Below are positions 8,966-29,390 of a stretch of DNA of 45,692 nucleotides, piece after piece. Position numbers and translations under genes: made by a program. The DNA comes from Pseudonocardiales bacterium (GTDB lineage Bacteria > Actinomycetota > Actinomycetes > Mycobacteriales > QHCA01), in assembly GCA_040003795.1 (NCBI GenBank), contig JBDUBV010000001.1, positions 1-45,692 of the forward strand, in the 5' to 3' direction. Position 1 is the first letter of the stretch; each line of letters begins with the position of its first letter. Under the pieces are notes generated by a model. The model was not told the DNA's origin. It made no database searches and saw nothing but the letters and a program-made list of their open reading frames with translations.

Positions 8966-9117
8966 CAGCTCTGTCTAATCAGTTTGCGTGGCTGGTCGAG
9001 ACCCGCCACGCGGCTGAGCCGGGAACCCGAGCAACATTGGGGTGAGTCGCTCCTCGTCACTGGGGAGCGTAGGGCTTCTTCCGGCCCGAACCCGTCAGCT
9101 AACCCGGTAGACAGCTG
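8966..9117 (+). promoter_or_regulatory. cyclic-di-AMP riboswitch (ydaO/yuaA class)
   Basis: The P1 arms CAGCTCTGTCTA (8966-8977) and TAGACAGCTG (9108-9117) pair. Conserved blocks appear in the expected order: CTGTCTAATC, GAGCCGGGAACCCGA, TTGGGGTGAGTC, GCGTAGGGC, and CCCGAACCCGTCAGCTAACCCGGTAGACAG (compare B. subtilis ACCCGAACCCGUCAGCUAACCUCGUAAGCG). It sits directly upstream of an NlpC/P60 gene, a known context in actinobacteria. Confidence 0.75.
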
Positions 9118-9138
9118 AGGAAGAGGAGCCTCCCCTCC

Positions 9139-10107
9139 GTGGCATCCAGGCCCAGTGCCGTCCGTCCCTACCGCCTCTACGCGATTCTCACAGCCGGCCT
9201 GCTCGGCCTGGTCCTGGTGCCGGCCACCAGTAACGCCTCCTCACCGCCCTCTTCGACGCAACTGCGCCAGAGCCTGGCCGACCTGCAGACCCGGCTGGAG
9301 AAGGCTACCGAGGACTACAACACCGCAAATGTGTTGCTGGCCCGCAGCCGGGCCCACGAGAAGGAGTTGCGCGCGGAGGCGGTGCAGCAGTCCAAGCAGG
9401 TCGACGCCTACACCGCTCAGGTGTCCCGGTTCGCTGCCTCGGTCTATCGGGGCCAGGGCATCGATGTCATGGCCTCGCTCCTGCAGAACGGCTCGGCACA
9501 GAGCTTCCTCGACCAGATGTCGATGCTGGACAACCTCAGCCGCACCCAGCGCTCCCAGCTCAACGCTCTGACCGCCGCCCGGCGGCAGCTCGCACTGAGC
9601 AAGGCACGCATCGACGACGAGCTGACGACGCAGGCAAAGGACGCAGCCACGAAGAAGGCGCGCAAGGCCCTGATCGAGGCCAATCTGGCTAAGGTCAAGG
9701 CCCTGCTCCCGCCCAGCACCTCCGGCGGTGGCGTGGTGGGCGGAAGCTACACCGGCCCGGCCACCGGCAACGCGCTCAAGGCGCTGCGAACCGCGTACGC
9801 CCAGATCGGCAAGCCCTACCAGTGGGGGGGCGCCGGCCCCAACAGCTTCGACTGCTCCGGCCTGACGATGTATTCGTGGCGGGCCGGCGGTGTGTCATTG
9901 CCACACTCCAGCCGCATGCAGTACAGCAGCGGCCCGCACGTGGCCCGCTCGGCGCTGCAGCCCGGCGACCTGCTGTTCTTCGGCAGCCCCATCCACCACG
10001 TGGCCATGTACGTCGGAAACGGGCAGATGATCCACGCCCCGAACTTCGGCATGAACGTGCAGATCTCCCCGATCCAGTCCGACTACGTAGGCGCCGTCCG
10101 TCCCTAG
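9139..10107 (+). CDS. ripC: secreted coiled-coil NlpC/P60 peptidoglycan endopeptidase (RipC-like)
   Basis: Signal/TM segment (LYAILTAGLLGLVLVPATSNA), a roughly 180-aa coiled coil, then YQWGGAGPNSFDCSGLTMYSW...HHVAMYVGNGQMIHAP (catalytic Cys/His). GTG start after GAGGAAGAGGAG. The position matches Rv2190c. Confidence 0.85.
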   Translation: MASRPSAVRPYRLYAILTAGLLGLVLVPATSNASSPPSSTQLRQSLADLQTRLEKATEDYNTANVLLARSRAHEKELRAEAVQQSKQVDAYTAQVSRFAASVYRGQGIDVMASLLQNGSAQSFLDQMSMLDNLSRTQRSQLNALTAARRQLALSKARIDDELTTQAKDAATKKARKALIEANLAKVKALLPPSTSGGGVVGGSYTGPATGNALKALRTAYAQIGKPYQWGGAGPNSFDCSGLTMYSWRAGGVSLPHSSRMQYSSGPHVARSALQPGDLLFFGSPIHHVAMYVGNGQMIHAPNFGMNVQISPIQSDYVGAVRP

Positions 10108-11526: not shown

Positions 11527-12780
11527 ATGGCGCCAGCCGTAGCGCTCGCGGTCCTGGGGATCGGCCTGATGGCAGGCATCGCCTTCACCACCCCTTGGCA
11601 CACCCTTGACCGCCCGCCGGGCGGTCCGACGCCGGTGGTCGTGTCGCCGGACTTCACCCCGGCGCAGGTGGACCGTGAGCACGTGTTCCATCGGAGGATC
11701 CGGCCGGCCTCCTACGCCAACGTCGCCATCAGCCTCGGCCTGGCCGCACTGCTCGGCCTGACGCCACTCGGGGCGCGCCTGATCGGGGCGCTGGCCCGCC
11801 CGCTCGGCGGGGGATGGGTGTGGCGGGTGATCCTCGGCTCGCTGGTCATCGCCGTCGTCGGCCGGCTGGCGACCCTGCCGTTGTCGATCTACGGCGAGAC
11901 GGTGCTGCGGCGGTACGGCTTGTCCACACAGGACTGGGGTGGCTGGGCGGTCGACCAGCTCAAGGGACTCGGCCTGGGTGCCGGCCTCACCACGGTTGTG
12001 TTGCTGGGCTTCATCGGTGTCGTCAGGGCTGCCCCGCGCACCTGGTGGGCGTGGACCGCGGTCGGGTCCGCGGCCCTGGTCGTCACGCTGTCGTTCCTCT
12101 ACCCCGTGCTGGTCGAGCCGGTGTTCAACAAGTTCACCCCGCTGCCGGCCGGCGAGCTGCGTACCTCCCTGCTCCAGCTGGCGAACAGCGATCAGGTTCC
12201 GGTCCGCGACGTCCTCGTGGCCGACGCCTCGCGGCGCACCACATCGCTGAACGCCTACGTGTCCGGTTTCGGCTCGACCAGGCGCATCGTGGTCTACGAC
12301 ACGCTGATAAGGGACGCGCCGCCGGCCGAGGTGCGGCTCGTCGTCGCGCACGAGCTGGGCCACGCCAAGCGAGGCGATGTCGTCTACGGCACGTTGATCG
12401 GCGCGCTGGGGGTGGCCGCGACGTGCTGTCTGGCCTTCCTGCTCTTCACCGGTCCGTGGCTGCTGCGCAGGGCCGGCGTCACCGACCTGGCCGACGGCAG
12501 GTCCATCGCGTTGCTGCTTGCCGTGATCGCCATCGGTGGCGTGGTGACGATGCCGGTGCAGGTCCTGCTGTCGCGGCGCATCGAGGCCCGCGCCGACGTG
12601 CATTCCCTCGACCTCACCCACGACCCCGCGACATTCATCGACAGCGAGAAGCGGCTGGCCGTCACCAACCTTTCCGACCTGCAGCCCAACCCGGTCGTCT
12701 ACTGCCTGTTCTTCACCCACCCGACCAGCCCGCAGCGCATCGCCCTGGCGCGTGACTGGTCCAAGCTGCACGCCCGATGA
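11527..12780 (+). CDS. M48 family (Ste24/HtpX-like) integral membrane zinc metallopeptidase
   Basis: Several TM helices, NAYVSGFGSTRRIVVYDTL, the zinc motif VVAHELGHAKRGD, and a C-terminal FFTHPTSPQRI. The ATG at 11527 is 8 nt after the upstream stop. Confidence 0.85.
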   Translation: MAPAVALAVLGIGLMAGIAFTTPWHTLDRPPGGPTPVVVSPDFTPAQVDREHVFHRRIRPASYANVAISLGLAALLGLTPLGARLIGALARPLGGGWVWRVILGSLVIAVVGRLATLPLSIYGETVLRRYGLSTQDWGGWAVDQLKGLGLGAGLTTVVLLGFIGVVRAAPRTWWAWTAVGSAALVVTLSFLYPVLVEPVFNKFTPLPAGELRTSLLQLANSDQVPVRDVLVADASRRTTSLNAYVSGFGSTRRIVVYDTLIRDAPPAEVRLVVAHELGHAKRGDVVYGTLIGALGVAATCCLAFLLFTGPWLLRRAGVTDLADGRSIALLLAVIAIGGVVTMPVQVLLSRRIEARADVHSLDLTHDPATFIDSEKRLAVTNLSDLQPNPVVYCLFFTHPTSPQRIALARDWSKLHAR

Positions 12781-13898
12781 CGCGCACCCTGGTCGTCACC
12801 AACGACTTCCCGCCCCGAGCCGGCGGGATCCAGACGTTCGTCCACTCGCTGGTCGCCGGGCAGCCGGCCGGCTCGGTGGTGGTCTATGCCTCGTCGTCGC
12901 CGGGATTCTTGACATTCGATGCTGCCCAGAATTTCCAGGTCGTTCGTTATCCCGGCTCGATGCTGCTGCCGACGCGCGCCGCGGCCAGGGAGGTTGCGGC
13001 GCTCGCGCGGACGCACGGGTGCCGGTCGGTGCTGTTCGGCGCTGCCGCGCCCCTGGGTCTGCTGGCACCGTCGTTGCGGGCTTCCGGGATTCGCCGTCTC
13101 GTTGCCCTGACGCACGGCCACGAGGTGGGCTGGGCGGCGCTGCCTGGTGCCCGGACACTGCTGCGGCGGATCGGCGCCGCGGTCGACGTGGTGACGTACC
13201 TGGGGGAGTACACCCGGACTCGGCTGGCTGGGCTTTTCGGGCCTGCAGTGCGCCTGGAGCGGCTGGCGCCCGGCGTGGACACGTCGATGTTCTCCCCGGC
13301 GGTGGACGGGTCGGGCGTCCGGGCGGAGCTGGGCCTGGCCGGCCGCCCGGTGGTCGTGTGCGTCTCGCGTCTGGTGCCGCGCAAGGGGCAGGACACGCTG
13401 ATCCGGGCGCTGCCGCTGATCCGGTCGGCCGTGCCCGATGCTGCCCTGCTGCTGGTGGGTGGCGGGCCGGACCAGCCGCGGCTGCAGCGGCTGGCCGTCG
13501 AGTGCGGGGTGCCCGACGACGTGGTATTCACCGGCTCGGTGCCCTGGCCTGACCTACCTGCCTACTACGCGGCCGGCGACGTCTTCGCCATGCCCTGCCG
13601 GACGCGGCGGCGCGGCCTCGACGTCGAGGGGCTGGGGATGGTATACCTCGAGGCGTCCGCGACCGGCTTGCCCGTCGTGGCGGGGGACTCCGGCGGAGCG
13701 CCGGATGCCGTGGTCAACGGCGAGACCGGGTTCGTCGTGCCGGGCCGGTCGGTGCGGGCTGTGGCAGACCGCGTGACCGCGCTGCTGAGCGATCCCGCAT
13801 TGGCGCGGGGGATGGGAAAGAAGGGGCGCGCCTGGGTGGAACAGGACTGGCGGTGGGACACCGTTGCCGCCCGGCTGGGGGAGTTGCTGGCCGGCTAG
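12777..13898 (+). CDS. pimB: GT4 glycosyltransferase, PimB-like phosphatidylinositol mannoside mannosyltransferase
   Basis: MTRTLVVTNDFPPRAGGIQTFVHSLV resembles the Rv2188c N-terminus. The GT4 C-terminal half has RLVPRKGQD and EGLGMVYLEASATGLPVVAGDSGGAPD. ATGA overlap with the M48 gene. Its position is syntenic with Rv2188c. Confidence 0.8.
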   Translation: MTRTLVVTNDFPPRAGGIQTFVHSLVAGQPAGSVVVYASSSPGFLTFDAAQNFQVVRYPGSMLLPTRAAAREVAALARTHGCRSVLFGAAAPLGLLAPSLRASGIRRLVALTHGHEVGWAALPGARTLLRRIGAAVDVVTYLGEYTRTRLAGLFGPAVRLERLAPGVDTSMFSPAVDGSGVRAELGLAGRPVVVCVSRLVPRKGQDTLIRALPLIRSAVPDAALLLVGGGPDQPRLQRLAVECGVPDDVVFTGSVPWPDLPAYYAAGDVFAMPCRTRRRGLDVEGLGMVYLEASATGLPVVAGDSGGAPDAVVNGETGFVVPGRSVRAVADRVTALLSDPALARGMGKKGRAWVEQDWRWDTVAARLGELLAG

Positions 13899-13927: not shown

Positions 13928-16237
13928 TTGCCTAGGCTGTTCGACTGTGTCCGAGCGCGCTGCATGCCCGGCGAGGAGCTAGTGGCTATCACCATGGCGC
14001 CGAGCGTGCCGGTCCGAACGCCTTCGCCAGCAGATCGAATACTGGTTCCGCTGGTATGTGTCACCGCATTCGTCGGCGCTGGACTGCTGTTCATGGTGGA
14101 ACCGATGGTGGCCAAGCTGGTGCTACCCCTGTTCGGCGGCTCGCCATCGGTGTGGAACACCTCCATCTTCTTCTTCCAGGTCACCCTGCTGGCCGGCTAC
14201 CTCGTGACCCACCTGACCATCCGCCGGCTCGGCGTCCGGCGGCAGATGTGGCTGCAGCTCGGGCTGCTGATGCTCCCGCTGGCCGTGCTGCCGCTGGCGC
14301 TGCCCGCCAACGCCGACCCGCGGGCCGGCGCCCCGGCGGTGGTCTGGCTCCTGTACGTGCTCGTCATGGCGGTCGGCGCTCCCTTCCTCATGCTCGGCAC
14401 CGCCGGCCCGCTCCTGCAGAGATGGTTCGGGGGGACCAGCCACCCCCGGGCAACAGACCCGTACTTCCTGTTCGCCGCCGGCAACGCTGGGAGCTTGCTT
14501 GCGCTGTGCGCCTATCCGACCGCGATCGAGCCGTATCTCACCCTGCATCGGCAGCGGCTCGTCTGGTCAGCCGGCTATGTGGTCTTCGTGCTGCTCAGCA
14601 TCGGGTGCGTCCTGCTGATGCGGGGACGGCTCACCGGAGACGGTCCGGTCGAACCACGCGCGGAGACTCCCGCCCCGCCGCTGACCGGTCGGCGCCGGCT
14701 TCGATGGGTCGCGCTGGCTTTCCTGCCCGCCAGCATGATGCTGGGCACCACCACCTACATCACCACCGACATCGCGCCCATTCCGCTGCTCTGGGTAGTG
14801 CCGCTGTCGGTCTACCTGGTGACGTTCATCGTGGCGTTCGCCGTGTCACCGGCGGCCGCTGCGACGATCAGCCGGCGGCTGGCCGCGGCTCTGGCCGGCC
14901 TGGCTGTTCCGGCTGGTCTCAGTGCCGTCGGGCTGCTCCCGATGCCGACGCTCCTGGCCGTTGCCTTGCAGCTGGCGACGTTCGCCCTGGTGGCGCTGAC
15001 CGCGCACTGCGCCCTAGCGGCCGACCGGCCGGCGGTGTCCCAGCTGACCTCGTTCTATCTCCTGGTCGCCAGCGGAGGGGCACTCGGCGGCGCCTTCAAC
15101 GGCCTCATCGCGCCGGTGGTCTTTAACCGGCTGTACGAGTATCCGATGGTGATCGCCGCGGCCATGTTCCTCTACGCCGGGGCCGGGCGCGCCGGTTGGC
15201 TGCGCCGGCGCCTTCCCAGTGTCCGGGCACCCATCGCGGCACTGGTCGCCGGGGCGGCGCCGCTGGCGCTGGGACTCGCCGCAGCAGCCGGCGTACCGGG
15301 TCGCGGACGGTTGCCGGTGGCGGCCGCCACGGTGATCCTCCTCGGGGCATTGGCGCTGGTGGCGGCGCGGCGGCTGCCCGCTGCGTTCGCTATCGGCCTG
15401 CTGGTGATGCTGGTCGGGGTGGCGACCCAGGGCAAGAGCCTCCTGGTGGAGCGGACGTTCTTCGGTGTCCAGAAGGTCGACGTGCAGGCAGGCGACCGGC
15501 ACGTGCTGACGAACGGACGCACCGTGCACGGCATTCAGGACTTCCGCGGGGGCAACCGGCTGCAGCCGTTGAGCTACTACCACCCGGACGGGCCGGCGGG
15601 AGATGTGTTCCGGGCCTATCCGGGTGCCAAGCGAGATGCCAGGGTGGCAGTGATCGGGCTGGGTGCAGGCAGCCTGGCCGCCTATGGTCGCGCGGGCCAG
15701 CGCTTCACCTTCTACGAGCTCGACCCTGCGACGGTCGCCATTGCCCGGGATCAGCGGCTGTTCACCTACCTGCGGGACAGCCGAGCGGCCGTCGACGTCG
15801 TCGTCGGAGACGGCAGACTCTCGATCGCGCGGGCCTCCCCGGCCGAATACGACCTCGTGGTGGTCGACGCCTTCAGCTCAGACGCGATTCCCGTGCATCT
15901 GCTCACATCCGAAGCGGTCGCGTTGTACGCCTCACGGTTGCGCCCCGGAGGTTGGCTCGTTGTGCACATCAGCAACCGCCACCTGAATCTCGCGCCGGTG
16001 GTGGCCAACATCGCGCGCGTCCGTGGCATGTCCGCGGCGATCAGAATCGACGAGCGGTCGAAGCTGTCGGCTGGCAAGGCTCCCTCTACATGGGTCGCGT
16101 TGAGCCACGATCCAGCCGATCTCGCGCCTCTGATGGCCACCGGCCGGTGGGCGGACCTGGCGAGCTGGCGGACGGGCGCGCCTGCGTGGACCGACGACTT
16201 CTCCAATCTCTTCGGTGTCCTCAAGTGGGGCAGCTGA
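13928..16237 (+). CDS. fused polytopic membrane domain / spermidine synthase-like (class I SAM-fold) protein
   Basis: About 500 aa of TM helices, then VAVIGLGAGSLAAY...FYELDPATVAIARD...VVGDGRLSI...YDLVVVDAFSSDAIPVHLLT...LRPGGWLVVHISN. The start is uncertain (TTG 13928 or ATG 13994). Confidence 0.7.
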   Translation: MPRLFDCVRARCMPGEELVAITMAPSVPVRTPSPADRILVPLVCVTAFVGAGLLFMVEPMVAKLVLPLFGGSPSVWNTSIFFFQVTLLAGYLVTHLTIRRLGVRRQMWLQLGLLMLPLAVLPLALPANADPRAGAPAVVWLLYVLVMAVGAPFLMLGTAGPLLQRWFGGTSHPRATDPYFLFAAGNAGSLLALCAYPTAIEPYLTLHRQRLVWSAGYVVFVLLSIGCVLLMRGRLTGDGPVEPRAETPAPPLTGRRRLRWVALAFLPASMMLGTTTYITTDIAPIPLLWVVPLSVYLVTFIVAFAVSPAAAATISRRLAAALAGLAVPAGLSAVGLLPMPTLLAVALQLATFALVALTAHCALAADRPAVSQLTSFYLLVASGGALGGAFNGLIAPVVFNRLYEYPMVIAAAMFLYAGAGRAGWLRRRLPSVRAPIAALVAGAAPLALGLAAAAGVPGRGRLPVAAATVILLGALALVAARRLPAAFAIGLLVMLVGVATQGKSLLVERTFFGVQKVDVQAGDRHVLTNGRTVHGIQDFRGGNRLQPLSYYHPDGPAGDVFRAYPGAKRDARVAVIGLGAGSLAAYGRAGQRFTFYELDPATVAIARDQRLFTYLRDSRAAVDVVVGDGRLSIARASPAEYDLVVVDAFSSDAIPVHLLTSEAVALYASRLRPGGWLVVHISNRHLNLAPVVANIARVRGMSAAIRIDERSKLSAGKAPSTWVALSHDPADLAPLMATGRWADLASWRTGAPAWTDDFSNLFGVLKWGS

Positions 16238-16242
16238 CCGGG

Positions 16243-17700
16243 TCAGCCGTCCCCGCCGGGTGGCGGGAGCAGGATCACCGTGCGGCCGTCAGTCCAGGCG
16301 ACGGTCCACCCCAACTGATGTTGCAGGCCTCCGGCCAGGGGAACCCCGACGTCGAGCCAGGCGGCATCGGGCTGCGAGTCCGCGACGAAAGTTCGCCAGT
16401 CCCCGTGGAGGTTCAGGGTATCCACGTACCGGCTGATGTATGCGGGCCCGAAAATCTCGTAACGTCCGTCGACGGCGGGTGAGGCGTCACGGGCGGTCCA
16501 CAGCATCCAGTTACCCAACTCGAACTGGTCGAGCACCCTCGCCCTGCCCGGCAGGTCGTCGAGGATCTGGCTGGCCGCCGCGGGCGCCGGCCGGCGGATG
16601 GGGTCCTGATGGGCGAGCACGGTGGCGCCCAACGCGCAGGTGAGCAGAGCGGCACCGGTCAGGATGGCCGAGTGCCGCCGCGACCACGCGCGCTTCTCCG
16701 GTGGGGCGGCGAACAGCTCGGCCATCGCCTGGGCGGCCAGCGGTGCCAGCAGCACACCGGCCAGCGGTCCGGTCCTCAGGTATGCCACCGCGAGGAAGGC
16801 AGCCGCGAACAGATACAGCACCTCGTACGGCGGGACGCGACGGCTTCCTCGTGCCCAGGCGGTCAGCACGATGCCCACTAGCAGCAGGGCGGCGGCGCTC
16901 GGCAGGCTGGTCACGTGCGGTGGTTGCCACTCGGTGACGTACTTCGCGATGCCCCGCACCTCGAACGGCGACAGGAGCAGTCGCGGCCCGACCGGCGTCA
17001 GCGCCGTGGCCGCCAGCATTGCCGCACCCACCCCGGCGAAGCGCAGGAAGACCTTGCGATTGCGCCGGCTCCCGTCCAGCGCGACCCCGACCGCAACGCA
17101 GGCGTAGAGCGCGAGGCCGACGGTCCACAGGCCGTGCAGGCTCGCCCACAGCCACATGAACGGGATCAACCACAGCGGCGGCCGGCCACGGCGCGCGGCC
17201 TCGAGCAGCGCGGGGCCCAGGATGGCCATCAGCAGGAATGAGGCGAGCTGGGGACGGGCAGCCGCCCCCGGCTCCACTGTCGCCAGGCCGAACAAGGCGG
17301 CGATGGTGGTGTGCAACCAGCTGCCGCGCTTGCGGCACTGCACGACGACCACGGCGGCGATGGCGGCGAGCGCCAGCGAGCGCAAGATCAAGACGCCGCT
17401 GTAACCGCCGGCGCGGTAGCCGGCGTAGAGCAGCAACTGGGACAGCCACTCGTGCAGGATCCATGGCCGGCTGGAGGCGAAGGACCACTGGTCGGCGGCC
17501 GGCAGCCGGTGATGCGCGGCAATCCACTCGCCGGTCCGCAGGTGCCACCAGAGGTCGGAATCGGTCGTCGGCCGCAGGCCCTGCAGTCCGAAGGCCAACA
17601 CGGCCAGCCAGGGCACCACCTCGCCGAGTGCCGGGCCGCCGCCTGCTGTCGGCGCCTCCCGGCTTCCCGCTTGCGCAGGTGCTGCCGACGTCGCGGTCAT
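16243..17700 (-). CDS. polytopic membrane protein with a DxD loop and a C-terminal soluble domain (GT-C-like, paralog A)
   Basis: 485 aa from the ATG at 17700, in an ATGA overlap with paralog B. After TM1 comes TTDSDLWWHLRTGEWIAAHH. There are at least 10 hydrophobic segments, the motif LWASLHGLW, and a C-terminal domain VLDQFELGNWMLW...VDGRYEIFG...PDAAWL...GWTVAWTDGRTVILL. The 5' extension to 18417 is rejected. Confidence 0.6.
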   Translation of the reverse strand: MTATSAAPAQAGSREAPTAGGGPALGEVVPWLAVLAFGLQGLRPTTDSDLWWHLRTGEWIAAHHRLPAADQWSFASSRPWILHEWLSQLLLYAGYRAGGYSGVLILRSLALAAIAAVVVVQCRKRGSWLHTTIAALFGLATVEPGAAARPQLASFLLMAILGPALLEAARRGRPPLWLIPFMWLWASLHGLWTVGLALYACVAVGVALDGSRRNRKVFLRFAGVGAAMLAATALTPVGPRLLLSPFEVRGIAKYVTEWQPPHVTSLPSAAALLLVGIVLTAWARGSRRVPPYEVLYLFAAAFLAVAYLRTGPLAGVLLAPLAAQAMAELFAAPPEKRAWSRRHSAILTGAALLTCALGATVLAHQDPIRRPAPAAASQILDDLPGRARVLDQFELGNWMLWTARDASPAVDGRYEIFGPAYISRYVDTLNLHGDWRTFVADSQPDAAWLDVGVPLAGGLQHQLGWTVAWTDGRTVILLPPPGGDG

Positions 17701-19199
17701 GGCGGCCAGATGGTGGACGCGGGCGGGGCGAGAAGGACGTAACCGTTGTCGTGCAGCACGGTGCGCCAGCCGACGCCCACCAGCAGTGGCACCAGCGGAG
17801 CGTCGGAGGGCAGCACGGCGGCGTCCGGGTCGAGGTCCTGCACGGTCGAGCGCCAGCCGGGGCGGCCGTCCGTCATCGCGAAGTAGCGGCTCAGAAAGGT
17901 GCGACCGTAGCGGTCCGCGCGCCCGTCCACGGCCACCCGCACCGAGGGTCCCGCCGACGTGGCGAGGTAGCCGCCGATGTCGTAGTCGTTGAGGACCCGG
18001 ATCGGCGCGGGCTCCGAGCGCAGCGCCGCGGCGATGTGGGACGGCGCCCACAGCGGTGTTGTCGGCTTGGTGAGCGTTGCGACCAGCAGGGCCATCACCG
18101 TTGTACCGACGAGCGCAGCCACCGCAGCGGTGGGAACCCGTCTGATGGTGCGGCCCCCCGAGCGGCCGTCCAGGACTCGCGCAGTCACCGGCGCGATCAG
18201 GATGCAGGCCGGGCCGAGGTTGCGCCAGGCAAGCCCGGCATAGCCCGCCACCGCGAGCACCCACAACACCTCCGATCGGCTCGGCCTGCTGGCGCTGACG
18301 GCCCATCCGACGACGACGATCACGAGCAGCGCGACAAAGCCCCAGGCGAACGGCCGGTCGAGTCGAGGGGCGAGCCACTCCGCGAGGTGACCGTGCGCCG
18401 CAGCGCTGACCTGCCACGGCGCCAGCAGCAGTCGAGGCCCCACCGGCGTGAACATCGCGACGACGGGCGACAGGGCGGCGCTGAGGATCAAGGCGCGTTG
18501 GTCGGGAGCGCCCAGCCGGTCACCGTCGAGCCGACGGGCTACCACGACGACGAGCAACGTGACTGGGACCAGCACCCACAGGCCGTGGGTCAAGGCCCAC
18601 AGCCATGTCACCGTGAGCAGCACCGGGACCGGAGGCTGCCCGACGTGGCGGCGGGCCCGGTCACACACCCAACTGAGCCAGACAACGAAGACCATCGAGG
18701 CCAGCTGCGGCCGTTCCTCGAGGAAGGGATACACGCTGAGGCAGGCCAGGCAGAACACGATGGCCTGACTGCTCGGGCGGTGCCGGCGCAGCAGCACGTG
18801 CAAGCCGCCCAGCAGGGCGAGCGTCCCGGCCAGCTCCAGGAGCACCACGCCGCGGTCGCCGCCGATGCGGTGCACTGCAGCGAGCGCGATGTCGGCCGCC
18901 CAGGAGCTGGTGGACCACACCGTTGCGGGCCTGGTGTAGGCCCAGGCGTCCGGCAGGAGCGGGTGCCCGTGTCGCAGGATTTGCTCGCCCACAGCAACGT
19001 GCAGGAAGACGTCGTGGTCGTGGATCGGCCCGATGGAGGTGGCCGCCGTCAGGGTCCCGGCGACGATCGACAGCAGCGTCCACGCCGCGGGTCCTCGGCG
19101 TTGGCCGCTGGCGCCGCCGGGGCCGATGGCTGCTGGGGCAGCGTCGGCATCGGCATTGGTGCGTTGCGCGGGGCGCCAGGCTGGGGCCGTTCTGGTCAC
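17697..19199 (-). CDS. polytopic membrane protein with a DxD loop and a C-terminal soluble domain (GT-C-like, paralog B)
   Basis: 500 aa with a GTG start at 19199. It has the same layout as paralog A: IHDHDVFLHVAVGEQILRHGH after TM1, LWALTHGLW, and a C-terminus VLNDYDIGGYL...VDGRADRYG...PDAAVL...GWRTVLHDNGYVLL. It starts 73 nt downstream of flp1. Confidence 0.6.
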   Translation of the reverse strand: MTRTAPAWRPAQRTNADADAAPAAIGPGGASGQRRGPAAWTLLSIVAGTLTAATSIGPIHDHDVFLHVAVGEQILRHGHPLLPDAWAYTRPATVWSTSSWAADIALAAVHRIGGDRGVVLLELAGTLALLGGLHVLLRRHRPSSQAIVFCLACLSVYPFLEERPQLASMVFVVWLSWVCDRARRHVGQPPVPVLLTVTWLWALTHGLWVLVPVTLLVVVVARRLDGDRLGAPDQRALILSAALSPVVAMFTPVGPRLLLAPWQVSAAAHGHLAEWLAPRLDRPFAWGFVALLVIVVVGWAVSASRPSRSEVLWVLAVAGYAGLAWRNLGPACILIAPVTARVLDGRSGGRTIRRVPTAAVAALVGTTVMALLVATLTKPTTPLWAPSHIAAALRSEPAPIRVLNDYDIGGYLATSAGPSVRVAVDGRADRYGRTFLSRYFAMTDGRPGWRSTVQDLDPDAAVLPSDAPLVPLLVGVGWRTVLHDNGYVLLAPPASTIWPP

Positions 19200-19230
19200 C
19201 GCGCGCCCCCGTCTTCTGCCCAGGTCCTGC

Positions 19231-19256
19231 GCAAGCCGGTCAGCTGTCCGGCTTGC
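19231..19256 (-). terminator. stem-loop 17 nt after the flp1 stop (9-bp perfect stem, 8-nt loop)
   Basis: GCAAGCCGG (19231-19239) and CCGGCTTGC (19248-19256) are exact reverse complements. No U-tract follows, so this is more likely an attenuator or mRNA-stabilising hairpin than a full intrinsic terminator. Confidence 0.5.
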
Positions 19257-19272
19257 CGGACCCCCGTCGCGC

Positions 19273-19470
19273 TCAGCAGCCTGGGGCTCCGCCTGAAGCG
19301 TTCTTGAGGCTGTTACACGTCGTCCCGAAGACGCCGGAGATGGTGCTGCCGAACAGGAACAGAACAGCCACGATCACCGCTGCGATGGCGGCAACGAGCA
19401 GGGCGTATTCCACCGCTGAAGCACCCCCATCCCCGCGAGTGAGGAATCGGATGTGCGTGCGAGCCAGCAT
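19273..19470 (-). CDS. flp: Flp family type IVb pilin (prepilin), copy 1
   Basis: 65 aa: MLARTHIRFLTRGDGG/ASAVEYALLVAAIAAVIVAVLFLFGSTISGVFGTTCNSLKNASGGAPGC. It has the Flp G/xxxxEY processing motif plus a hydrophobic helix. An AGGAGA Shine-Dalgarno lies upstream. Confidence 0.9.
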   Translation of the reverse strand: MLARTHIRFLTRGDGGASAVEYALLVAAIAAVIVAVLFLFGSTISGVFGTTCNSLKNASGGAPGC

Positions 19471-19561: not shown

Positions 19562-19768
19562 TCAGCAGCCCGTGGTACCGCTGGAGCTCTTGATGCTGTT
19601 GCAGGTGGTCTTGAAGACACCTTCGATGGTGCTGCCGAACAGGAACAGGACGGCCACGATGACCGCGGCGATGGCCGCGACGAGCAGCGCGTACTCCACT
19701 GCGGAGGCGCCCTCATCCTGCTTGGTCTTGATCGCGACGAGCAACCGGACGTAGAACTGGGTGAGCAT
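19562..19768 (-). CDS. flp: Flp family type IVb pilin (prepilin), copy 2
   Basis: 68 aa: MLTQFYVRLLVAIKTKQDEG/ASAVEYALLVAAIAAVIVAVLFLFGSTIEGVFKTTCNSIKSSSGTTGC. An AGGAGG Shine-Dalgarno lies upstream. The 29-residue core GASAVEY...GSTI is identical to copy 1. Confidence 0.9.
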   Translation of the reverse strand: MLTQFYVRLLVAIKTKQDEGASAVEYALLVAAIAAVIVAVLFLFGSTIEGVFKTTCNSIKSSSGTTGC

Positions 19769-19923: not shown

Positions 19924-20565
19924 CTATGGCGGGGGGGGAGCGCCGCTTTGCAGCAGCCCGAGCCGCAGCGCGGTCATCAGCGCCTGTGCCCGGTTGCCGG
20001 CTCCCAGCTTGCCGTACAGCTTGGAGATGTGCGTCTTGGCCGTCGACTCGCTGATGTAGAGCTTCTTGGAGATGGCCGCCACCGACATGCCCTCGGCGAG
20101 CAGGATCAGCACCTGGCTCTCGCGTTGGGACAGTTGGGGTCCGCTCGGTGCCAGGCGCCGTTTCATCGCCTCCGCCAATTCCGCGGCACTGAAGGCGTTC
20201 GGCGACGCAAAGGCGTGGCGCGCCGCGGCGACGACCTCATCGGCCGGGGACTGCTTGGGAACGAAGGCGGATGCACCGGCGTTGAGCGCGCCGAACAGGT
20301 GCTCATCCCCGGCGTACATAGTCAGAACCACGATCCCGAGGGAAGCCCGTGCAGCCCGGAGCTGGCGGGTGATGTCAAGGCCGCTGCCGTCCGGAAGCTG
20401 GATATCGGTGACGACGACGTCGGGCTGCAATTCGGTGGCCGTGCGCAGTGCCTCTGCGACCGTGCCCGCTTCGCCCACGACGTGGAAGTCGCCGGCCCGC
20501 TCGAACGCACGGCGCAGGCCCTGCCGGATCAGCTCGTGATCATCGATCAGAAGGACGGTGGGCAC
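19924..20565 (-). CDS. NarL/LuxR family response regulator
   Basis: VLLIDDHELIRQGL...DVVVTDIQLPDGSG...VVLT (receiver with intact acidic pocket), then LSQRESQVLILLAEGMSVAAISKKLYISESTAKTHISKLYGKLG (GerE HTH). GTG start at 20565. Confidence 0.9.
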   Translation of the reverse strand: MPTVLLIDDHELIRQGLRRAFERAGDFHVVGEAGTVAEALRTATELQPDVVVTDIQLPDGSGLDITRQLRAARASLGIVVLTMYAGDEHLFGALNAGASAFVPKQSPADEVVAAARHAFASPNAFSAAELAEAMKRRLAPSGPQLSQRESQVLILLAEGMSVAAISKKLYISESTAKTHISKLYGKLGAGNRAQALMTALRLGLLQSGAPPPP

Positions 20566-22192
20566 TGCCTACTCCCTGCCTGACGCCGTTACCGGCGGCC
20601 AGCGTACGCCCTGGGGACGCCAAACCGAGCTGCACGTGCACCCGGGTGCCGTGCGGCTGCCGGGCGCCGACTTCGAGCGCGGCTCCCAGCCTGGCCGCTC
20701 TCTCGCGCATGATCGCCTGACCGTAACTGTCCTGTCGCCGCTCGGTGGGCATGCCCACCCCGTCATCCTCGACGACAATGGTCGCGTGGGCCGGCTGCAC
20801 GGTCACGCTGACCCAGAGATTGCTGGCACGGGCATGCTTGCGGGCGTTCGTCACCGCCTCCTGCGTGATCCGGAACAGCTCCGCCTCAGTCGCCGCGGGT
20901 AGCCTCCGGGTGGACTCGTCCAATGTGATGTGGACGGTCAGCCCGGAACTTGCCCCTATCGTCCGTACGTAGGCTGAGATCGCGGCGCCCAGCCCGCCGT
21001 GCGGGTCGATGTCGCTGCGAAGGTCGAACAGCGAGAGGCGCAACTCTGAAATGATCCGGGTCACCTCGACGCGCAACTGGCCAAGGGCTGTCCGAGCGTC
21101 GTCGGCACCCTCAGGGGTCTCGGCCAGCGCGTGGTCTATGCCGTAGCCCACGATCACCAACTCTTGCGCGATCCCGTCATGGATCTCGCGGGCGACCCTC
21201 TGGCGCTCCTCGGTAGTGGCGAGGTCTCGGACCTCGTCGAACAGCAGGGCGGTCTCGAGCCGGAGGGCCGCGTCGGCGCAGGCCGCATTCATGCGCCCGA
21301 CCGCCGCCAGATCGGGGGCTCGATCGCGCCCCTGCAAGCCGACCAACCCCACCGTGCGAATGCCGACGAGGAGCGGAAAGATGAGCAGCCAGCCGTCGCC
21401 GTCTACGGCGGTCAACCGGTGCGCCTGCGCGGCCCACGCGTCTGCGAACAACGAGTCACCGGTGATTTGGACGTCCCACTGCTGCGCCGCGTCCGCGTCG
21501 CCTCCGAGCTGCACAAGTCGTTCTCCCCCCGTGCGGGCGAAGACGGCGACGCTGTCGGCCGAGGCGCGCAGCTTGAGGTCATCGGCGAGCTGGGTAGAGA
21601 TGCTTACCGGGTCAAGGGTGCCGGGCAGCTGACGAGCGACACTGCGCAGCTGGGTGAGCAGCCGGTAGGCGGTCCCGAACAATGGCTGGTCCACCGTCGG
21701 CTGCAGCCTCAACAGTCGCCGGGACCATGCGGCCACCAGACCGGCGGCCAGGGCGATGACCACCCCCTGGCCAACGTTGTCCAGGTAGGCCACGTCGGTC
21801 AAGCGGTCTGTGGCGGCCCCGGCGGCCAGCAGGATCGCCGCGCCCAGCCCGGTCAGAATTGTCGCGTCGATCGCCCCGGAGAACAGTCCGGCGGCGAGCA
21901 CCGGCACGGCCAGGAGCAGGAAGAAGGCTCCGGTTGCCCCCTGGGTCAGCAGGACAGCGGCACAGATGACGCTGACTTCCGCAGCGCGGGCAAATCGTGC
22001 GGTGAGCGACTCCTGCGGCAGTCGAACGGGCGCCGCTGCCACCGCTAAGAGGACGATGACGCCCGCTACGGCAGGTCCGAACGAGTGTCCTGCGGCGGCC
22101 ACCACGAGGCAGAGCACCAGCAAGACGGCCCGGAAAATCCAGACGACGCGCTGGGGCCTGGCCTGAATGGTCAGTGCTGCCTGTGACGCCAC
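20540..22192 (-). CDS. membrane sensor histidine kinase (TM region + GAF-like + HisKA_3 + HATPase_c)
   Basis: About 5 TM segments, a central GAF-like region, and the H-box ERQRVAREIHDGIAQEL. The ATPase blocks are TQEAVTNARKHA and VEDDGVGM. Its 3' end overlaps the regulator start by 26 nt. Confidence 0.9.
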   Translation of the reverse strand: MASQAALTIQARPQRVVWIFRAVLLVLCLVVAAAGHSFGPAVAGVIVLLAVAAAPVRLPQESLTARFARAAEVSVICAAVLLTQGATGAFFLLLAVPVLAAGLFSGAIDATILTGLGAAILLAAGAATDRLTDVAYLDNVGQGVVIALAAGLVAAWSRRLLRLQPTVDQPLFGTAYRLLTQLRSVARQLPGTLDPVSISTQLADDLKLRASADSVAVFARTGGERLVQLGGDADAAQQWDVQITGDSLFADAWAAQAHRLTAVDGDGWLLIFPLLVGIRTVGLVGLQGRDRAPDLAAVGRMNAACADAALRLETALLFDEVRDLATTEERQRVAREIHDGIAQELVIVGYGIDHALAETPEGADDARTALGQLRVEVTRIISELRLSLFDLRSDIDPHGGLGAAISAYVRTIGASSGLTVHITLDESTRRLPAATEAELFRITQEAVTNARKHARASNLWVSVTVQPAHATIVVEDDGVGMPTERRQDSYGQAIMRERAARLGAALEVGARQPHGTRVHVQLGLASPGRTLAAGNGVRQGVGSAHRPSDR

Positions 22193-22338: not shown

Positions 22339-23691
22339 CTAATTCCGGTACTCCCCGAGCTTTCGAGCCAGACGTCTTACCAGCACGGCCGTGGTCAACA
22401 GTCGAGCGGCCTCGGCGCAGAGGCCCAGCACTGCCTCGAGGTCGCGCTTGACGAAGGGGGGAGCATCTCGGCCGATCAGGACCAGGCCGGCGACTCGGGC
22501 GATCGGTACACCGATGATGTGCCGGCAGGCAGCAAGTGGCGCATCGGCGAGGCGACCACGCACGATGTCGGAGTCGGTCACCATGAACGCGTGCCCGGCC
22601 AAGACGACGTCACGGACCAACCAGTGCCCCTCACCTAGGCGCGCTCGCCGTTCCGCGCCGCTCAGGCCCTTGCTGGCGTACACCAGCCAGGTCTGCTCGT
22701 CGGGCAGGATGAGGCATCCCGCGTCGCCACCCGAACGATCGAGTGACTCAGCCAGCACCACGTCAGCGGTCTCCCCTACGCCAGCCATCTGATCGGAGCG
22801 TTCCAGCAGCCGCTGGAGGAGCTCATCGAGGGCCAACGGCGGTGCGGCGACCGGGACAGCGGGTCGCGGCGCCCTTGCCGTCGGGAAGATTCGCCGGGGT
22901 CGCTCACGAGGCGCAGGAGCCGAGGAGACCAGTGCAGCGACCGGCTTGGCCGCAGGTGCCTGCTTGCGCGGTGCCTGCTGCGGCCTTGGCGCCTCAGCCG
23001 GGGTCGCCTGACGCGGTGAGCTGGCAGATGCCGGATGAGCCACCGTGAGCGGTTCCGGGCGGCGGCCACTGTGCCGCTGTGCCCCGGCGAACGATGCATC
23101 GAAGCGGGCAACGACGGGCGCAAGGGGGAGGCCGAGTGCCGTTGCGATCGCGCGTACGAGGTCGCGGGCAAACTCGACGTCATCACAACCGGAGAAGTCG
23201 TCATCCTCGATCTGGCCGACGGTCGCCTGCAGAATCAGGGTACGGCGGGACACGTCGGCCAAGGACCATCCCTGCTTCTCCCGCGCGCCCTTGAGCAAGG
23301 TGCCGATCGAGTCAGCCTCCGGCGCCCCGATCGCGACCGCGGGTGTACTGGCACCGAGAGCATCGTGCACCGCGGTGAGAAGCGCCCCCTTGGACAGCGG
23401 GAGCTGCAAGAAGGTCACACCCGACAGCCGTAGTAGGCGTACGCGATCCCACAGTGCCTCACCGTCGGTAGCCACGATGACAGGAAGCGTCAAGCCGTCT
23501 CCCTGCAAGCCCTGGAGAACTGCCTCAACCGCCACCGGGTCGCCGACGTCCAGGATCGCCGCATCGGCGACCGCCAACCCAGCGCGCCATTCGTCCGCGG
23601 CATCGGGCCGCAGGACCACGAGCTCGTAGGGCTCCGAGGCAAGTGCCATGGCTAGGGCCGCGTTGCGGGTGACAAGCAATAGTCGACTCAT
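22339..23691 (-). CDS. pseudo-receiver / HTH (XRE/RodZ-like) / Pro-rich linker / GAF domain regulator
   Basis: 450 aa from the ATG at 23691. MSRLLLVTRNAALAMA...AAILDVGD...PVIVATDG...FLQLPLS is a receiver fold lacking the DD pocket and the conserved Lys. LLKGAREKQGWSLADVSRRTLILQATVGQIEDDDF is the HTH. A roughly 110-aa Pro/Ala-rich linker follows, then a C-terminal GAF-like domain (DAGCLILPDEQTWLVYASKG...GVPIARVAGLVLIGRD). Confidence 0.7.
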   Translation of the reverse strand: MSRLLLVTRNAALAMALASEPYELVVLRPDAADEWRAGLAVADAAILDVGDPVAVEAVLQGLQGDGLTLPVIVATDGEALWDRVRLLRLSGVTFLQLPLSKGALLTAVHDALGASTPAVAIGAPEADSIGTLLKGAREKQGWSLADVSRRTLILQATVGQIEDDDFSGCDDVEFARDLVRAIATALGLPLAPVVARFDASFAGAQRHSGRRPEPLTVAHPASASSPRQATPAEAPRPQQAPRKQAPAAKPVAALVSSAPAPRERPRRIFPTARAPRPAVPVAAPPLALDELLQRLLERSDQMAGVGETADVVLAESLDRSGGDAGCLILPDEQTWLVYASKGLSGAERRARLGEGHWLVRDVVLAGHAFMVTDSDIVRGRLADAPLAACRHIIGVPIARVAGLVLIGRDAPPFVKRDLEAVLGLCAEAARLLTTAVLVRRLARKLGEYRN

Positions 23692-23916
23692 ACTGGTCTC
23701 GCCACCGTGATGGCAGGCCGTAGGTTCGCGGCCGGCCTCCGCTGCACTGGGCCCCCTCGCCTGGCGATCTTCACCTGTCGCGTCCGGCGTGCGAACGCTC
23801 AAGGGCCGGATGCCTGCTCTCGACAGGGATTGTGAGCGGCAGTTGGGGATCCGGCAAGCTCAGAGCGGTGAACGGGCGGCCCTCGCTGCGCCGCTAGCGG
23901 GAAAGCGATCAGGCGC

Positions 23917-24861
23917 TCATTTTCCGACTCCGCCGAAGGTGTGGATGATGTTGATGACCGCTGGCCCCAGAATGACGATGAACAGCGCCGGCAGGATGGT
24001 GAAGATCAACGGGAAGAGGATCTTGACTGGCACTTTCTGAGCCTGTGCTTCGGCGCGCTGGCTGCGCTTCAGCCGCATCTCGTGGGCCTGGATGCGCAGG
24101 ACGTTGGCGATGGGGATGCCAAAGGAATCCGCTTGAATCATGGCGGTCACGAAGCCGCGGAGTTCCGGAAGGTCGGTGCGCTCGCCGAGACCACGCATGG
24201 CGTCTGAACGTCCCACGCCGATCTGCATCTCCTGGAGGACTCGGAAGAATTCTTCGGCCAAGGGCCCGACAGTGTTCCGGGCCACCTGGGAGAGCGCCGA
24301 GTCGAATGCCAAGCCGGCCTCGACGGAGATCGTGAGCAGGTCCAGGGCATCCGGCAACTCCTTGCGCATGCGGTCCCGCCTGTTGTATGCGCGCTGGTAG
24401 AGCCAGAGATCGACGGCAAAGAACCCGATGACCGTCACGATCGCGGTCACCCCGATGAACACCAGGGCGCGCAGGCCCAACAGCGCCGAGAGGGCAACGC
24501 CCAGAATCAGGCCGGCGAGCAGGCCTAGCGTCTTGAAGGCCAGCACCCGGTCGGGGTCCCAGCGAGCCGGGCTTCCGGCGAGATCGAGCTTGTGGCGGTA
24601 TTTCTCGGTCTGCCCGCCCGGCGTGAGACGACGCCCGAGCCTGCTCAGCCGCACGAGTGCCGGGCCGACGACCCGCTCGTCGAAGCCACGGTCGGTGTCG
24701 CGTCGAAGTGCGTTGGGTGTGGACTCCAGCGCGCGCACGGCCGCGAGGGAGCGGCCCACCTGCGAGCGCTCCGCTGTGAACACTCCGATCGTGGTCAGCA
24801 GCAGGGTCAGGGCGAGAAAGATCGCACCGAGCCCACCCAGAAGCAGGAGCTGGGGTGTCAT
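23917..24861 (-). CDS. tadC: Tad pilus platform protein TadC (T2SS F family)
   Basis: 314 aa with N-terminal TMs. The T2SSF domain reads LPDALDLLTISVEAGLAFDSALSQVA...MQIGVGRSDAMRGLGERT, with C-terminal TMs. Its start is 1 nt after the tadB stop. Confidence 0.9.
   Translation of the reverse strand: MTPQLLLLGGLGAIFLALTLLLTTIGVFTAERSQVGRSLAAVRALESTPNALRRDTDRGFDERVVGPALVRLSRLGRRLTPGGQTEKYRHKLDLAGSPARWDPDRVLAFKTLGLLAGLILGVALSALLGLRALVFIGVTAIVTVIGFFAVDLWLYQRAYNRRDRMRKELPDALDLLTISVEAGLAFDSALSQVARNTVGPLAEEFFRVLQEMQIGVGRSDAMRGLGERTDLPELRGFVTAMIQADSFGIPIANVLRIQAHEMRLKRSQRAEAQAQKVPVKILFPLIFTILPALFIVILGPAVINIIHTFGGVGK

Positions 24862-26811: not shown

Positions 26812-26815
<4 letters not shown>
24863..26815 (-). 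CDS. tadB: fusion protein: signal peptide + extracytoplasmic vWA domain (complete MIDAS) + TM + TadB (T2SS F family)
   Basis: 650 aa from the GTG at 26815, in a GTGA overlap with the cpaF stop. The signal peptide is WRWLAVAAAGFCAILLLAGPASA. MIDAS elements are VVLVIDTSGSM, GDTALYDGL and VLLLSDGADT. The TM is SLYVAVGALFAGLLLLLLVVLFG. A standard-length T2SSF domain follows (LPDVLQLLAGSLSAGYSFPQAV...). Confidence 0.85.
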
Positions 26816-28193
<1,378 letters not shown>

Positions 28194-28197
<4 letters not shown>

Positions 28198-29390
28198 GTT
28201 CGTGCCTTCCTGCGCAGCAGCCCGCGCCGGTCTGTCCGGAGGTGGCCGGGGACGGCCGAGCGGTGCGTGGTGTGGTCGACGACGTGCCGCTCGCCGAACT
28301 GCCTGATGGCCTCGCTGACGGGGTGGCGGGGTGAGTCGAGGACCAATGGCACCCCGCGGTTGACCGAGGCGGGCACGTCGCGCGAGGAGGGGATCTGGCA
28401 GGCGATCGGCACCTTGAGCGTCTTCTCGACGTCCGCCAGTGCCAGCCCGACCTTGGAATCGGCGCGGTTGAGAACGACCCGCCACTTCTCCCGAGGGTAG
28501 TTGAGCAGGTCCAGCGTCTCCAGGGTGAGCTTGAGGTTCTTCAAGGCCGGGATGTCCAGTGTGGCCAGCAGAGCCACGACGTCGCTCTGGTCGAAGGCGG
28601 CGAGCACATGGTCGGTGAACGCCGGCGGGGTGTCCACCACTACATAGGGGAACATCCGTTTGAGCAGATGCAGCACCTTGGCGACAGTTGCGGCCGGGAT
28701 GGTCTCGGCCAGCCCTGGCTCCACCGGCGCCACGAGCGTGCTCAGACCGGGAGAGTGTGGGGTGATCAGCCCCGCAACTGCTGCCTCGTCCAAGGTGTCC
28801 GACATCGGCACGGCATCGGCAAGGGTGTGCGCCGGAAAGAGCTGCAGGGTAATGGCGACATCGCCGAAGGCCAGATCGAGGTCGACCAGGCACACCTCGC
28901 GGCGGCCCCCGTCAGCCAGGGCTGCTGCCAGGTTGGTAGCCATCGTCGTCTTCCCACAGCCGCCCTTGGCGGCGAAGACCGTGACGAGGCGCCCGGAGTC
29001 GATCTCGTCCTCTTGACTGGCCTCTGCCTGGTCGCGAAGCGCGTCGGTGATGCGCAGCGACCGGTGTGCGGCGGCTCGCAACTCGTTGGGGTCGGCGTCC
29101 GCCACGACGTCACGCACGCCCGCGCGCAGGGCCTCGGTGAGCGTCACGGCATCGACGGTGTGCCTGACCAGGATGATGCCGACCTCGGGCCGGACAACCC
29201 GAAGTGACTGAGCGAGCGCGAAGGCTTCCGACTGCTCGACACTCGGGCCGATCATGATGGCCTGCAGGCCCGCCTCGTCGGCGAGTTGCCGCCGCAGCGA
29301 GTCGACGCTGCCGAGCACCCGCCACCCGGCGCCGAGCGTGGCGCGCAACGTCTCGGCAACGACCTGGTCGTGCTCGACGATGTAGCTCAT
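28194..29390 (-). CDS. tadZ: TadZ/CpaE-like protein: atypical receiver domain + MinD/ParA-type ATPase
   Basis: The N-terminal receiver-like domain lacks a clear acidic pocket. The deviant Walker A is VFAAKGGCGKTTMATNLAAAL, followed by VCLVDLDLAFGDV and YVVVDTPP. Confidence 0.85.

Follow-up and report, generated by a model that had tools for sequence, protein, structure and literature searches.

A tandem pair of GT-C-fold membrane proteins encoded behind Flp pilin genes in a Pseudonocardiales contig as candidate Tad pilus glycosyltransferases

The DNA analyzed here, hereafter the window, is a 45.7-kb contig of a Pseudonocardiales metagenome-assembled genome (MAG). It contains a Tad/Flp pilus locus in which two Flp pilin genes, flp2 and flp1, are followed on the same strand by two overlapping genes for large membrane proteins, gene A (positions 17697–19199, minus strand; 500 residues) and gene B (positions 16243–17700, minus strand; 485 residues). 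Judged from their modeled folds and an acidic motif in loop 1, A and B belong to the GT-C glycosyltransferase superfamily. They are probably active GT-Cs of an unnamed family, with an outward active site that transfers a polyprenyl-phosphate-linked sugar onto a component of the Tad pilus, the likeliest target being Ser/Thr residues of the Flp tail.

Fold, topology and conservation of the A and B proteins

A and B are paralogues of the same architecture that share 31% sequence identity over almost their entire length (BLASTP E = 8e-36), and both open reading frames (ORFs) are identical to proteins annotated in the deposited MAG (ABJA34_00090 for A and ABJA34_00085 for B). The A stop codon and the B start codon overlap in an ATGA tetranucleotide (positions 17697–17700, minus strand), an arrangement read as translational coupling, and gene A begins 73 nt beyond the flp1 stop codon. 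An earlier note, made from the letters of this DNA, had described two paralogous genes with these lengths, this overlap and this distance from flp1, and each of these details holds in the sequence.

AlphaFold2 models of A and B were built from alignments of 34 and 40 sequences, respectively (pLDDT 92.3 and pTM 0.89 for A; pLDDT 92.9 and pTM 0.90 for B). Each model consists of 11 transmembrane (TM) helices and a C-terminal α/β domain of ∼105 residues (about residues 387–491 in A). The shared architecture that the earlier note had put forward (TM1, an acidic loop, at least ten TM segments and a C-terminal soluble domain) is borne out by both models. The N-terminus of A is placed inside by the positive-inside rule (15/76 Lys and Arg in the inner loops versus 6/85 in the outer loops), and the same orientation is predicted for B with a weaker positive-inside signal than in A.

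A DxD motif (D61/D63 in A and D47/D49 in B) is located six residues past TM1 on the predicted outer side of the membrane. D61 is invariant and D63 is kept in at least 90% of the 34 sequences, and D47 and D49 of B behave likewise. Among the 34–40 homologues, W201/H205 in the WLWA.HG.W helix and D425/R427 in the C-terminal DGR motif are likewise invariant or nearly so; from the letters alone, the earlier note had singled out these same three motifs. The conserved residues of A comprise D61, D63, H67, R163-P164, W201, H205, T251-P-x-G-P, E274-W275, R326 and D425-G-R427. The invariant residues of B are the same as in A (D47/D49, R149, H189, E257, R309 and D411), and all of them are retained in both proteins. 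In the N-in orientation, every invariant or nearly invariant residue lies outside, in the outer loops, at the outer ends of helices or in the C-terminal domain. This pattern is as expected for a GT-C active site at the outer surface of the membrane, in which the acidic residues would presumably serve catalysis or metal binding and the basic ones would bind the phosphate of the donor.

Comparison of the models with PDB structures using Foldseek yielded a uniform set of matches. Every match of A or B with a probability of at least 0.9 is a GT-C glycosyltransferase (the top 23 matches of A and the top 25 matches of B, at a probability of at least 0.97), including STT3 of the yeast and human oligosaccharyltransferases (OSTs), AglB, PglB, the C-mannosyltransferase DPY19, ArnT, AftA, AftD, ALG12 and Emb. 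After these matches, the list falls to noise (probability <0.2). The TM-scores are moderate (TMq 0.45–0.60, Emb excepted at 0.34–0.40) and the root-mean-square deviations are large, which tells against the assignment and may be caused by the differing sizes of GT-C enzymes. No transporter was matched by A or B in the PDB, and no viral structure was matched at E ≤ 0.001. The GT-C reading that the earlier note had drawn from a DxD motif in the first outer loop agrees with every confident structural match, and the non-transferase family, such as a transporter, that it had named as contrary evidence was encountered neither among the confident structural matches, which are GT-C folds only, nor in the hidden Markov model (HMM) searches, which gave no family.

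Neither A nor B matched a Pfam or NCBIfam model, PDB sequence searches with A and B singly and with a 34-sequence profile gave chance matches only, and 10 distant relatives matched no Pfam family except tetratricopeptide repeat (TPR) domains. Three memberships were considered and rejected. The STT3/PglB/AglB family is not indicated by any PF02516 match (E ≤ 1; A, B and 10 distant members), and A and B contain no WWD motif. The Wzy_C type (PglL and TfpO/PilO) is represented neither by a PF04932 match nor by any enzyme among the structural matches listed, and the PMT/PMT_2/ArnT (GT39/GT83) and GT87 families gave no family HMM match at E ≤ 1. A profile search of 1.84 billion cluster representatives identified 38,231 members at E ≤ 0.001 and 13,119 members at E ≤ 1e-30. 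The named members among those listed are annotated as "hypothetical protein" or, in longer forms, "tetratricopeptide repeat protein". A and B are members of a very large family that has no curated model and no name.

Linkage to Tad genes and the candidate acceptor

The association of the family with Tad genes recurs in other genomes. A GTDB scan provided 32 loci (L001–L032), of which 28 include sequence upstream of the enzyme gene. Thirty-one of the 32 carry the label Actinomycetota; the remaining one (L011), labelled as Spirochaetaceae, has a PimB'-like GT4. One or two flp genes lie directly upstream on the same strand in 25 of the 28 loci; two loci have a divergent flp gene and one has none. 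Where the flank is long enough, flp is usually preceded by tadZ-tadA-tadB-tadC, a kinase gene and a regulator gene. The enzyme gene is present as a single copy in most related loci, and tandem paralogues are found in L001, L004, L016 and L019, in Phycicoccus and in two further settings described below (a GT2-linked contig and a Sulfuricystis plasmid). The second copies in L001, L004 and L016 are nearer to B than to A, so the A/B duplication is old; that in L019 is ambiguous (33.7% identity to A and 33.4% to B).

Because the 32 loci share ancestry, more distant members were examined, and 7 of the 12 lie beside Tad genes in differing gene orders. These orders include tadB-tadC-GT-C, flp-GT-C-cpaB and, in one member, a lone T2SSF gene followed by a GT-C–TPR fusion. 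The cultured Terrabacter sp. Root85 has the order tadE...tadZABC-GT-C. In Phycicoccus flavus, the order is GT-C-flp-flp-tadE-tadG-rcpC-tadZ-tadA, with two more paralogues and a glycosyltransferase cluster in divergent orientation. The three paralogues of this locus (L036, SAYU02000049.1; 449, 503 and 488 residues) flank the flp genes, and beyond them lie genes for two unknown membrane proteins and four cytoplasmic glycosyltransferases, an arrangement that points to a more elaborate glycan in this organism. Cultured carriers of the family thus include these two organisms and Longivirga aurantiaca CGMCC 4.7317 (L012), which has the gene order of the window.

Diderm lineages contribute a further arrangement, in which the GT-C gene is divergent from flp-tadV-tadE-rcpC-secretin. 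A metagenome scan with the protein of this locus (P0041) retrieved 80 loci. Among relatives of at least 45% identity with at least 700 bp of upstream sequence, 26 of 38 have a divergent flp gene within 1.2 kb, a count that overstates independence, as some of the 38 loci are near-duplicates. In this diderm subfamily (L039 and L047–L062), a class I S-adenosylmethionine (SAM) methyltransferase gene, 60–70% identical across loci, is convergent just downstream of the GT-C gene and may indicate a methylated sugar. Co-occurrence with flp in other genomes, on which the earlier note had made its proposal depend, is seen in several independent gene orders, diderm lineages included.

Type IV prepilins, including Flp, are anchored in the membrane with the C-terminus outside, and the C-terminal end of the Flp helix is exposed on the filament surface. 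Flp is considered as the acceptor because the prepilin C-terminus lies on the same side of the membrane as the conserved residues of the enzyme, and it would be the most economical acceptor. In the window, flp1 (positions 19273–19470, minus strand) encodes a Flp prepilin with a G/ASAVEY processing motif and the mature C-terminal tail TTCNSLKNASGGAPGC, and flp2 (positions 19562–19767, minus strand) encodes a Flp prepilin with the mature C-terminal tail TTCNSIKSSSGTTGC. The tails contain two Cys residues each and end in KNASGGAPGC (flp1) and KSSSGTTGC (flp2), the Ser/Thr/Gly-rich ends to which the earlier note had drawn attention. Exactly two Cys residues are present in 33 of 35 Flps encoded directly upstream of actinobacterial enzymes (including L002–L026). 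One Cys residue belongs to a T-[TS]-C-like motif and the other is located 0–2 residues from the C-terminus. The two enclose 5–18 residues, and Ser/Thr residues compose ∼38% of these Cys-bounded tails on average. The conserved Cys pair, missed in the earlier note, gives the Flp tail a resemblance to the C-terminal disulfide loop of type IVa pilins; to our knowledge, a Cys-closed C-terminal loop has not been described for Flp. Flps in other gene orders have Ser/Thr tails without Cys (L018, L032, L039 and L040) or short tails (L020 and L036). An N-x-S/T sequon is found in flp1 (NAS) and not in flp2, and the 35 related Flps have no conserved sequon position.

The interpretation of A and B as Flp-modifying GT-Cs, which the earlier note had advanced, is supported by fold, topology, conservation and linkage, with activity and acceptor inferred from these features. 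Several observations weigh against it. The actinobacterial linkage may in large part be synteny by descent; the whole island lies between pimB' and fadD15. P0041 relatives of less than 45% identity have tad genes within 3 kb in only 4 of 21 cases, and a TPR-bearing branch that is frequent in Polyangia MAGs has no pilus linkage; Tad linkage thus characterizes several subfamilies rather than the whole superfamily. The window ORFs scanned include no gene for a polyprenyl-phosphate sugar synthase (GT2), GtrA or DprE. The Caulobacter crescentus Tad pilus structure, in which the pilin is one continuous helix, contains no glycan density (PMC10710030), and Tad pili are clearly not all glycosylated. 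Finally, flp is not adjacent to the enzyme gene in the tadC-GT-C gene orders, and the Tad-linked members of L036 and L020 adjoin short Flps that lack a Ser/Thr-rich tail, so the acceptor could be another Tad component.

This last point leads to the reading in which A and B, as GT-Cs associated with the Tad system, act on minor pilins, on the TadG-like protein with TIG domains, on a wall glycopolymer at the pilus exit or on an adhesive polysaccharide. Such a role is unlikely but carries some weight, given the several gene orders in which the enzyme gene follows tadC and the neighboring Flps without Ser/Thr-rich tails. The three Phycicoccus paralogues next to a cytoplasmic glycosyltransferase cluster and the non-Tad members in polysaccharide clusters also fit it. 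However, the commonest arrangement places the enzyme gene directly after, or divergent from, flp, the Ser/Thr-rich Cys-bounded tail accompanies the enzyme in the actinobacterial clade, and the precedent of TfpW is pilin modification. In the window, the TadG-like protein (positions 30196–32085, minus strand; 629 residues) contains two IPT/TIG domains and Ser/Thr/Gly-rich linkers; it could serve as the acceptor in place of Flp, and it may be an adhesin of the pilus tip.

Sugar donor and comparison with known systems

Family members outside the pilus loci provide information on the donor. On the Sulfuricystis multivorans plasmid pSTJ1, genes for a GT2, a SAM methyltransferase and a GtrA-family protein are followed by two tandem family members (E ∼1e-74 to the family profile). 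This operon (L127, NZ_AP018719.1, positions 83624–88962) also has a 47-residue ORF, its two members are 504 and 503 residues long, and it adjoins TraF/G/H conjugation genes on a plasmid that is mobilizable. A metagenome contig has a GT2 gene followed by two tandem members, and another member is encoded amid GT87, GT2, GT4 and UDP-glucose dehydrogenase genes. The three-component pathway combines a synthase of polyprenyl-phosphate sugars with a flippase and a GT-C (PMC11127046). These gene groups match this scheme and point to a polyprenyl-monophosphate-linked sugar as the donor of the family. The window lacks donor-pathway genes, and the donor for A and B would therefore be made elsewhere in the genome; at a guess, polyprenyl-phosphate-mannose and decaprenyl-phosphate-arabinose are the obvious actinobacterial donor pools.

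The GtrA/GtrB/GtrC-type systems and the GT136 system (PMC11127046) are thus paralleled by the GT2-(GtrA)-GT-C operons of family members elsewhere. In contrast to these systems, the A/B pair stands alone behind pilin genes without a synthase or flippase, it presumably modifies a protein and not an O antigen or teichoic acid, and it matches no GtrC-like Pfam or NCBIfam model. The absence of donor-pathway genes near the pair in the window, together with the repeated adjacency of the family to the platform genes tadB and tadC, would suit GT-C-fold proteins with a non-catalytic Tad role, such as a membrane scaffold or pilin chaperone. This role is improbable, as residues of the type used for GT-C catalysis and for phosphate or metal binding are invariant in a very divergent family, all of them facing outward, and members occur in canonical GT2-GtrA-GT-C operons.

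The genes around the island raise another alternative, in which A and B are housekeeping envelope GT-Cs of the phosphatidylinositol mannoside/lipomannan/arabinan type that lie beside pimB' by ancestral synteny and have no Tad function. The convergent neighbor of the pair (positions 12777–13898, plus strand) is an orthologue of PimB' (E = 5e-102 to 3OKA) that is kept next to the GT-C gene in many loci, and L028 and L020 have fadD-GT-C-pimB' with no tad cluster in the available flanks. A housekeeping role is nonetheless very improbable, since A and B match neither GT87, PMT_2 nor other envelope GT-C Pfam models, the family accompanies flp/tad in gene orders and lineages without pimB', including secretin-containing diderm loci, and A and B share the strand of the tad genes, immediately follow flp and converge with pimB'.

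STT3, AglB and PglB are the best structural neighbors of A and B and likewise have an acidic motif after TM1 and a conserved extracytoplasmic motif in the C-terminal region, but they possess 13 TM helices, a WWDYG motif and a larger C-terminal domain, whereas A and B have 11 TM helices and no WWDYG motif. In archaea, AglB adds glycans to type IV pilins and archaellins. That A and B are STT3/AglB-like OSTs that transfer a preassembled glycan en bloc to Flp Asn residues, as a holdover of the archaeal ancestry of Tad, is scarcely credible: the STT3 and AglB matches, the N-A-S sequon in flp1 and the position of the most conserved motif early in the C-terminal domain, like WWDYG in OSTs, are outweighed by the lack of an STT3 Pfam match and a WWD motif, by the lack of a conserved sequon in flp2 and most related Flps, and by the GtrA/GT2 neighbors elsewhere, which point to monophosphate-linked single sugars.

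Among described enzymes, the closest functional analogue of A and B is TfpW. TfpW is a GT-C encoded directly after pilA in group IV Pseudomonas aeruginosa and transfers D-arabinofuranose (D-Araf) onto pilin Ser/Thr residues; its N-terminus is cytoplasmic, it spans the membrane with 11 TM helices, the acidic motif of its periplasmic loop 1 is essential, and its C-terminal region is a periplasmic TPR domain (10.1101/2020.04.19.049825). Compared with this published description, A and B share the N-in orientation, the 11 TM helices, the acidic loop-1 motif and the gene position after a pilin gene. TfpW serves type IVa pili with globular pilins, whereas A and B are encoded beside Tad/Flp pilus genes. 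The C-terminal region of TfpW is a TPR domain, whereas that of A and B is a small α/β domain with no TPR match; a TPR C-terminal domain as in TfpW is present in some distant family members. Unlike TfpW, A and B form a tandem paralogous pair, and no D-Araf pathway genes are nearby. A profile search with the TPR-bearing members revealed no Pseudomonas protein among the 120 matches listed, which are Polyangia-type MAG proteins only. By analogy, A and B may be regarded as the Tad counterpart of TfpW, that is, a pilin-gene-linked GT-C from an undescribed family. The earlier note had likened the gene order to both pilA-tfpO and pilA-tfpW; the comparison with the GT-C TfpW is apt, whereas TfpO/PilO is a Wzy_C-type enzyme without similarity to A or B. 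The tfpO gene immediately follows pilA, and its product acts on a C-terminal Ser residue beside the pilin disulfide loop, but TfpO/PilO and PglL belong to a fold family other than that of A and B.

The pairing of A and B has parallels in Pmt1–Pmt2 and EmbA–EmbB, which are paralogous GT-C pairs that work as heterodimers. A and B resemble them in that paralogous GT-Cs occur together, and tandem pairs recur in four independent contexts. Heterodimerization of A and B is pure conjecture.

In the mechanism proposed for A and B as glycosyltransferases of the Tad pilus, the active site would be formed outside the cytoplasmic membrane by the DxD motif after TM1 and by invariant Arg, His, Glu and Asp residues of outer loops 2–5 and the C-terminal domain. 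The sugar would come from a polyprenyl-phosphate-linked donor, with its synthesis encoded elsewhere in the genome, and be transferred to a component of the Tad pilus, most likely to Ser/Thr residues in the disulfide-closed C-terminal loop of Flp. Flp would be modified before it leaves the membrane, at a stage when its C-terminus points outward. The coupled A/B pair could function as a heterodimer or sequentially, with one enzyme priming and the other extending.

Tad pili function in adhesion, biofilm formation, DNA uptake and predation. Flp pilins are the smallest known pilins and are treated as unmodified, and Tad pili are pictured as bare single-helix polymers. The present analysis suggests that supposedly bare Tad pili are sugar-coated in many lineages. 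In its broadest form, the proposal is that the unnamed GT-C family includes dedicated Tad/Flp pilus glycosylation enzymes in monoderm and diderm bacteria, that Tad pili are glycosylated on exposed C-terminal tails in many lineages and that A and B act as a heterodimer or in two steps; this is plausible, if somewhat short of probable. Were it true, models of the Tad pilus surface would change with respect to charge, adhesion, and phage and immune recognition, the odd Ser/Thr-rich, Cys-closed tails of actinobacterial Flps would be explained, and a very large orphan membrane-protein family would gain a function. Tad systems descend from archaeal pili, which are heavily glycosylated, and Tad glycosylation would then echo that of the ancestral pili. 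The literature searched in full text, including a 2026 review, does not describe any Tad or Flp pilin glycosyltransferase, in line with the statement of the earlier note that no dedicated Flp glycosylation pair was known to it.

Intergenic hairpin and surroundings of the gene pair

The gap between flp1 and gene A contains a GC-rich stem-loop (about positions 19223–19263, minus strand) with a stem of ∼16 bp and no U-tract, corresponding to the hairpin that the earlier note had placed ahead of gene A. The z-score of this stem-loop is only about −2, but in ∼10 of 21 related loci the last flp gene is likewise trailed by a strong hairpin, unrelated in sequence, and z-scores there go down to −6.9. 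A scan of the flp–A gap for classic intrinsic terminators and sigma-70 promoters found neither. The flp1–A hairpin is a candidate partial terminator or transcript stabilizer that would set the ratio of pilin to enzyme. The recurrence of such hairpins suggests a conserved device that provides abundant pilin transcripts and limited read-through into the enzyme genes; most transcripts would stop after the pilin genes and a minority would extend into A and B.

The Tad locus of the window is complete and encodes Flp prepilins with the G/xxxxEY motif, TadA, TadB, TadC, TadZ, RcpC/CpaB and TadE/G. Its genes are arranged on one strand in the order TadE-like, TadG-like, CpaB/RcpC, TadZ, TadA, VWA-TadB, TadC, HTH/GAF, kinase, regulator, flp2, flp1, A and B. 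In addition to the TadG-like gene, Pfam, ORF and tblastn analyses located a tadE-like gene (positions 32067–32519), cpaB/rcpC (29404–30174), tadZ (28194–29390), tadA (about 26812–28200), VWA-tadB (24863 to about 26810) and tadC (23917–24861), all on the minus strand. TadB is fused to an N-terminal von Willebrand A (VWA) domain, and the same VWA+T2SSF fusion is found in Terrabacter (662 residues, L041) and in most related loci. No Peptidase_A24 (TadV) was identified by Pfam among the window ORFs scanned, and tblastn with a diderm TadV, a weak test, gave no match in the window or in L001–L032; the prepilin peptidase gene is probably elsewhere in the genome.

Three genes on the minus strand between tadC and flp were assigned by Pfam and synteny. 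A gene for an HTH_25 and GAF protein (positions 22339–23802) lies between tadC and the two-component system, which consists of a HisKA_3 histidine kinase (positions 20540–22192) and a LuxR-type response regulator (positions 19924–20565) encoded directly upstream of the flp genes. The kinase and the LuxR-type regulator are kept between tadC and flp in nearly all related actinobacterial loci, and the HTH_25 and GAF protein is present in about half of them. A similar kinase–regulator pair follows a non-Tad GT-C pair in L038. All three proteins are candidate regulators of flp and GT-C expression.

A composition-matched membrane ORF at positions 32660–34267 was considered as a third paralogue and rejected (hhalign probability only 0.5%). 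It is located immediately downstream of an ABC ATPase gene and most likely encodes the permease of that ATPase.

On the other side of the island, a fused major facilitator superfamily (MFS)/spermidine-synthase-like gene (positions 13928–16237, plus strand; 769 residues) is convergent with gene B, the two stop codons being only 5 nt apart. None of the 32 related loci contains an equivalent gene, so this one was apparently inserted locally between the GT-C pair and pimB'. An ARAGORN prediction of a 93-nt tRNA-Leu(GAG) (positions 13660–13752, plus strand) falls within the pimB' coding sequence and is probably a false positive. Genes for trpD, an NlpC/P60 protein and an acyl-CoA ligase are also present in the window beside the island, which appears to lie in a housekeeping region that presumably corresponds to Rv2187–Rv2192c of Mycobacterium tuberculosis. 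The NlpC/P60 peptidoglycan hydrolase gene (positions 9139–10107) lies directly behind a c-di-AMP (ydaO-type) riboswitch (Rfam RF00379, 65.9 bits; positions 8984–9128, plus strand).

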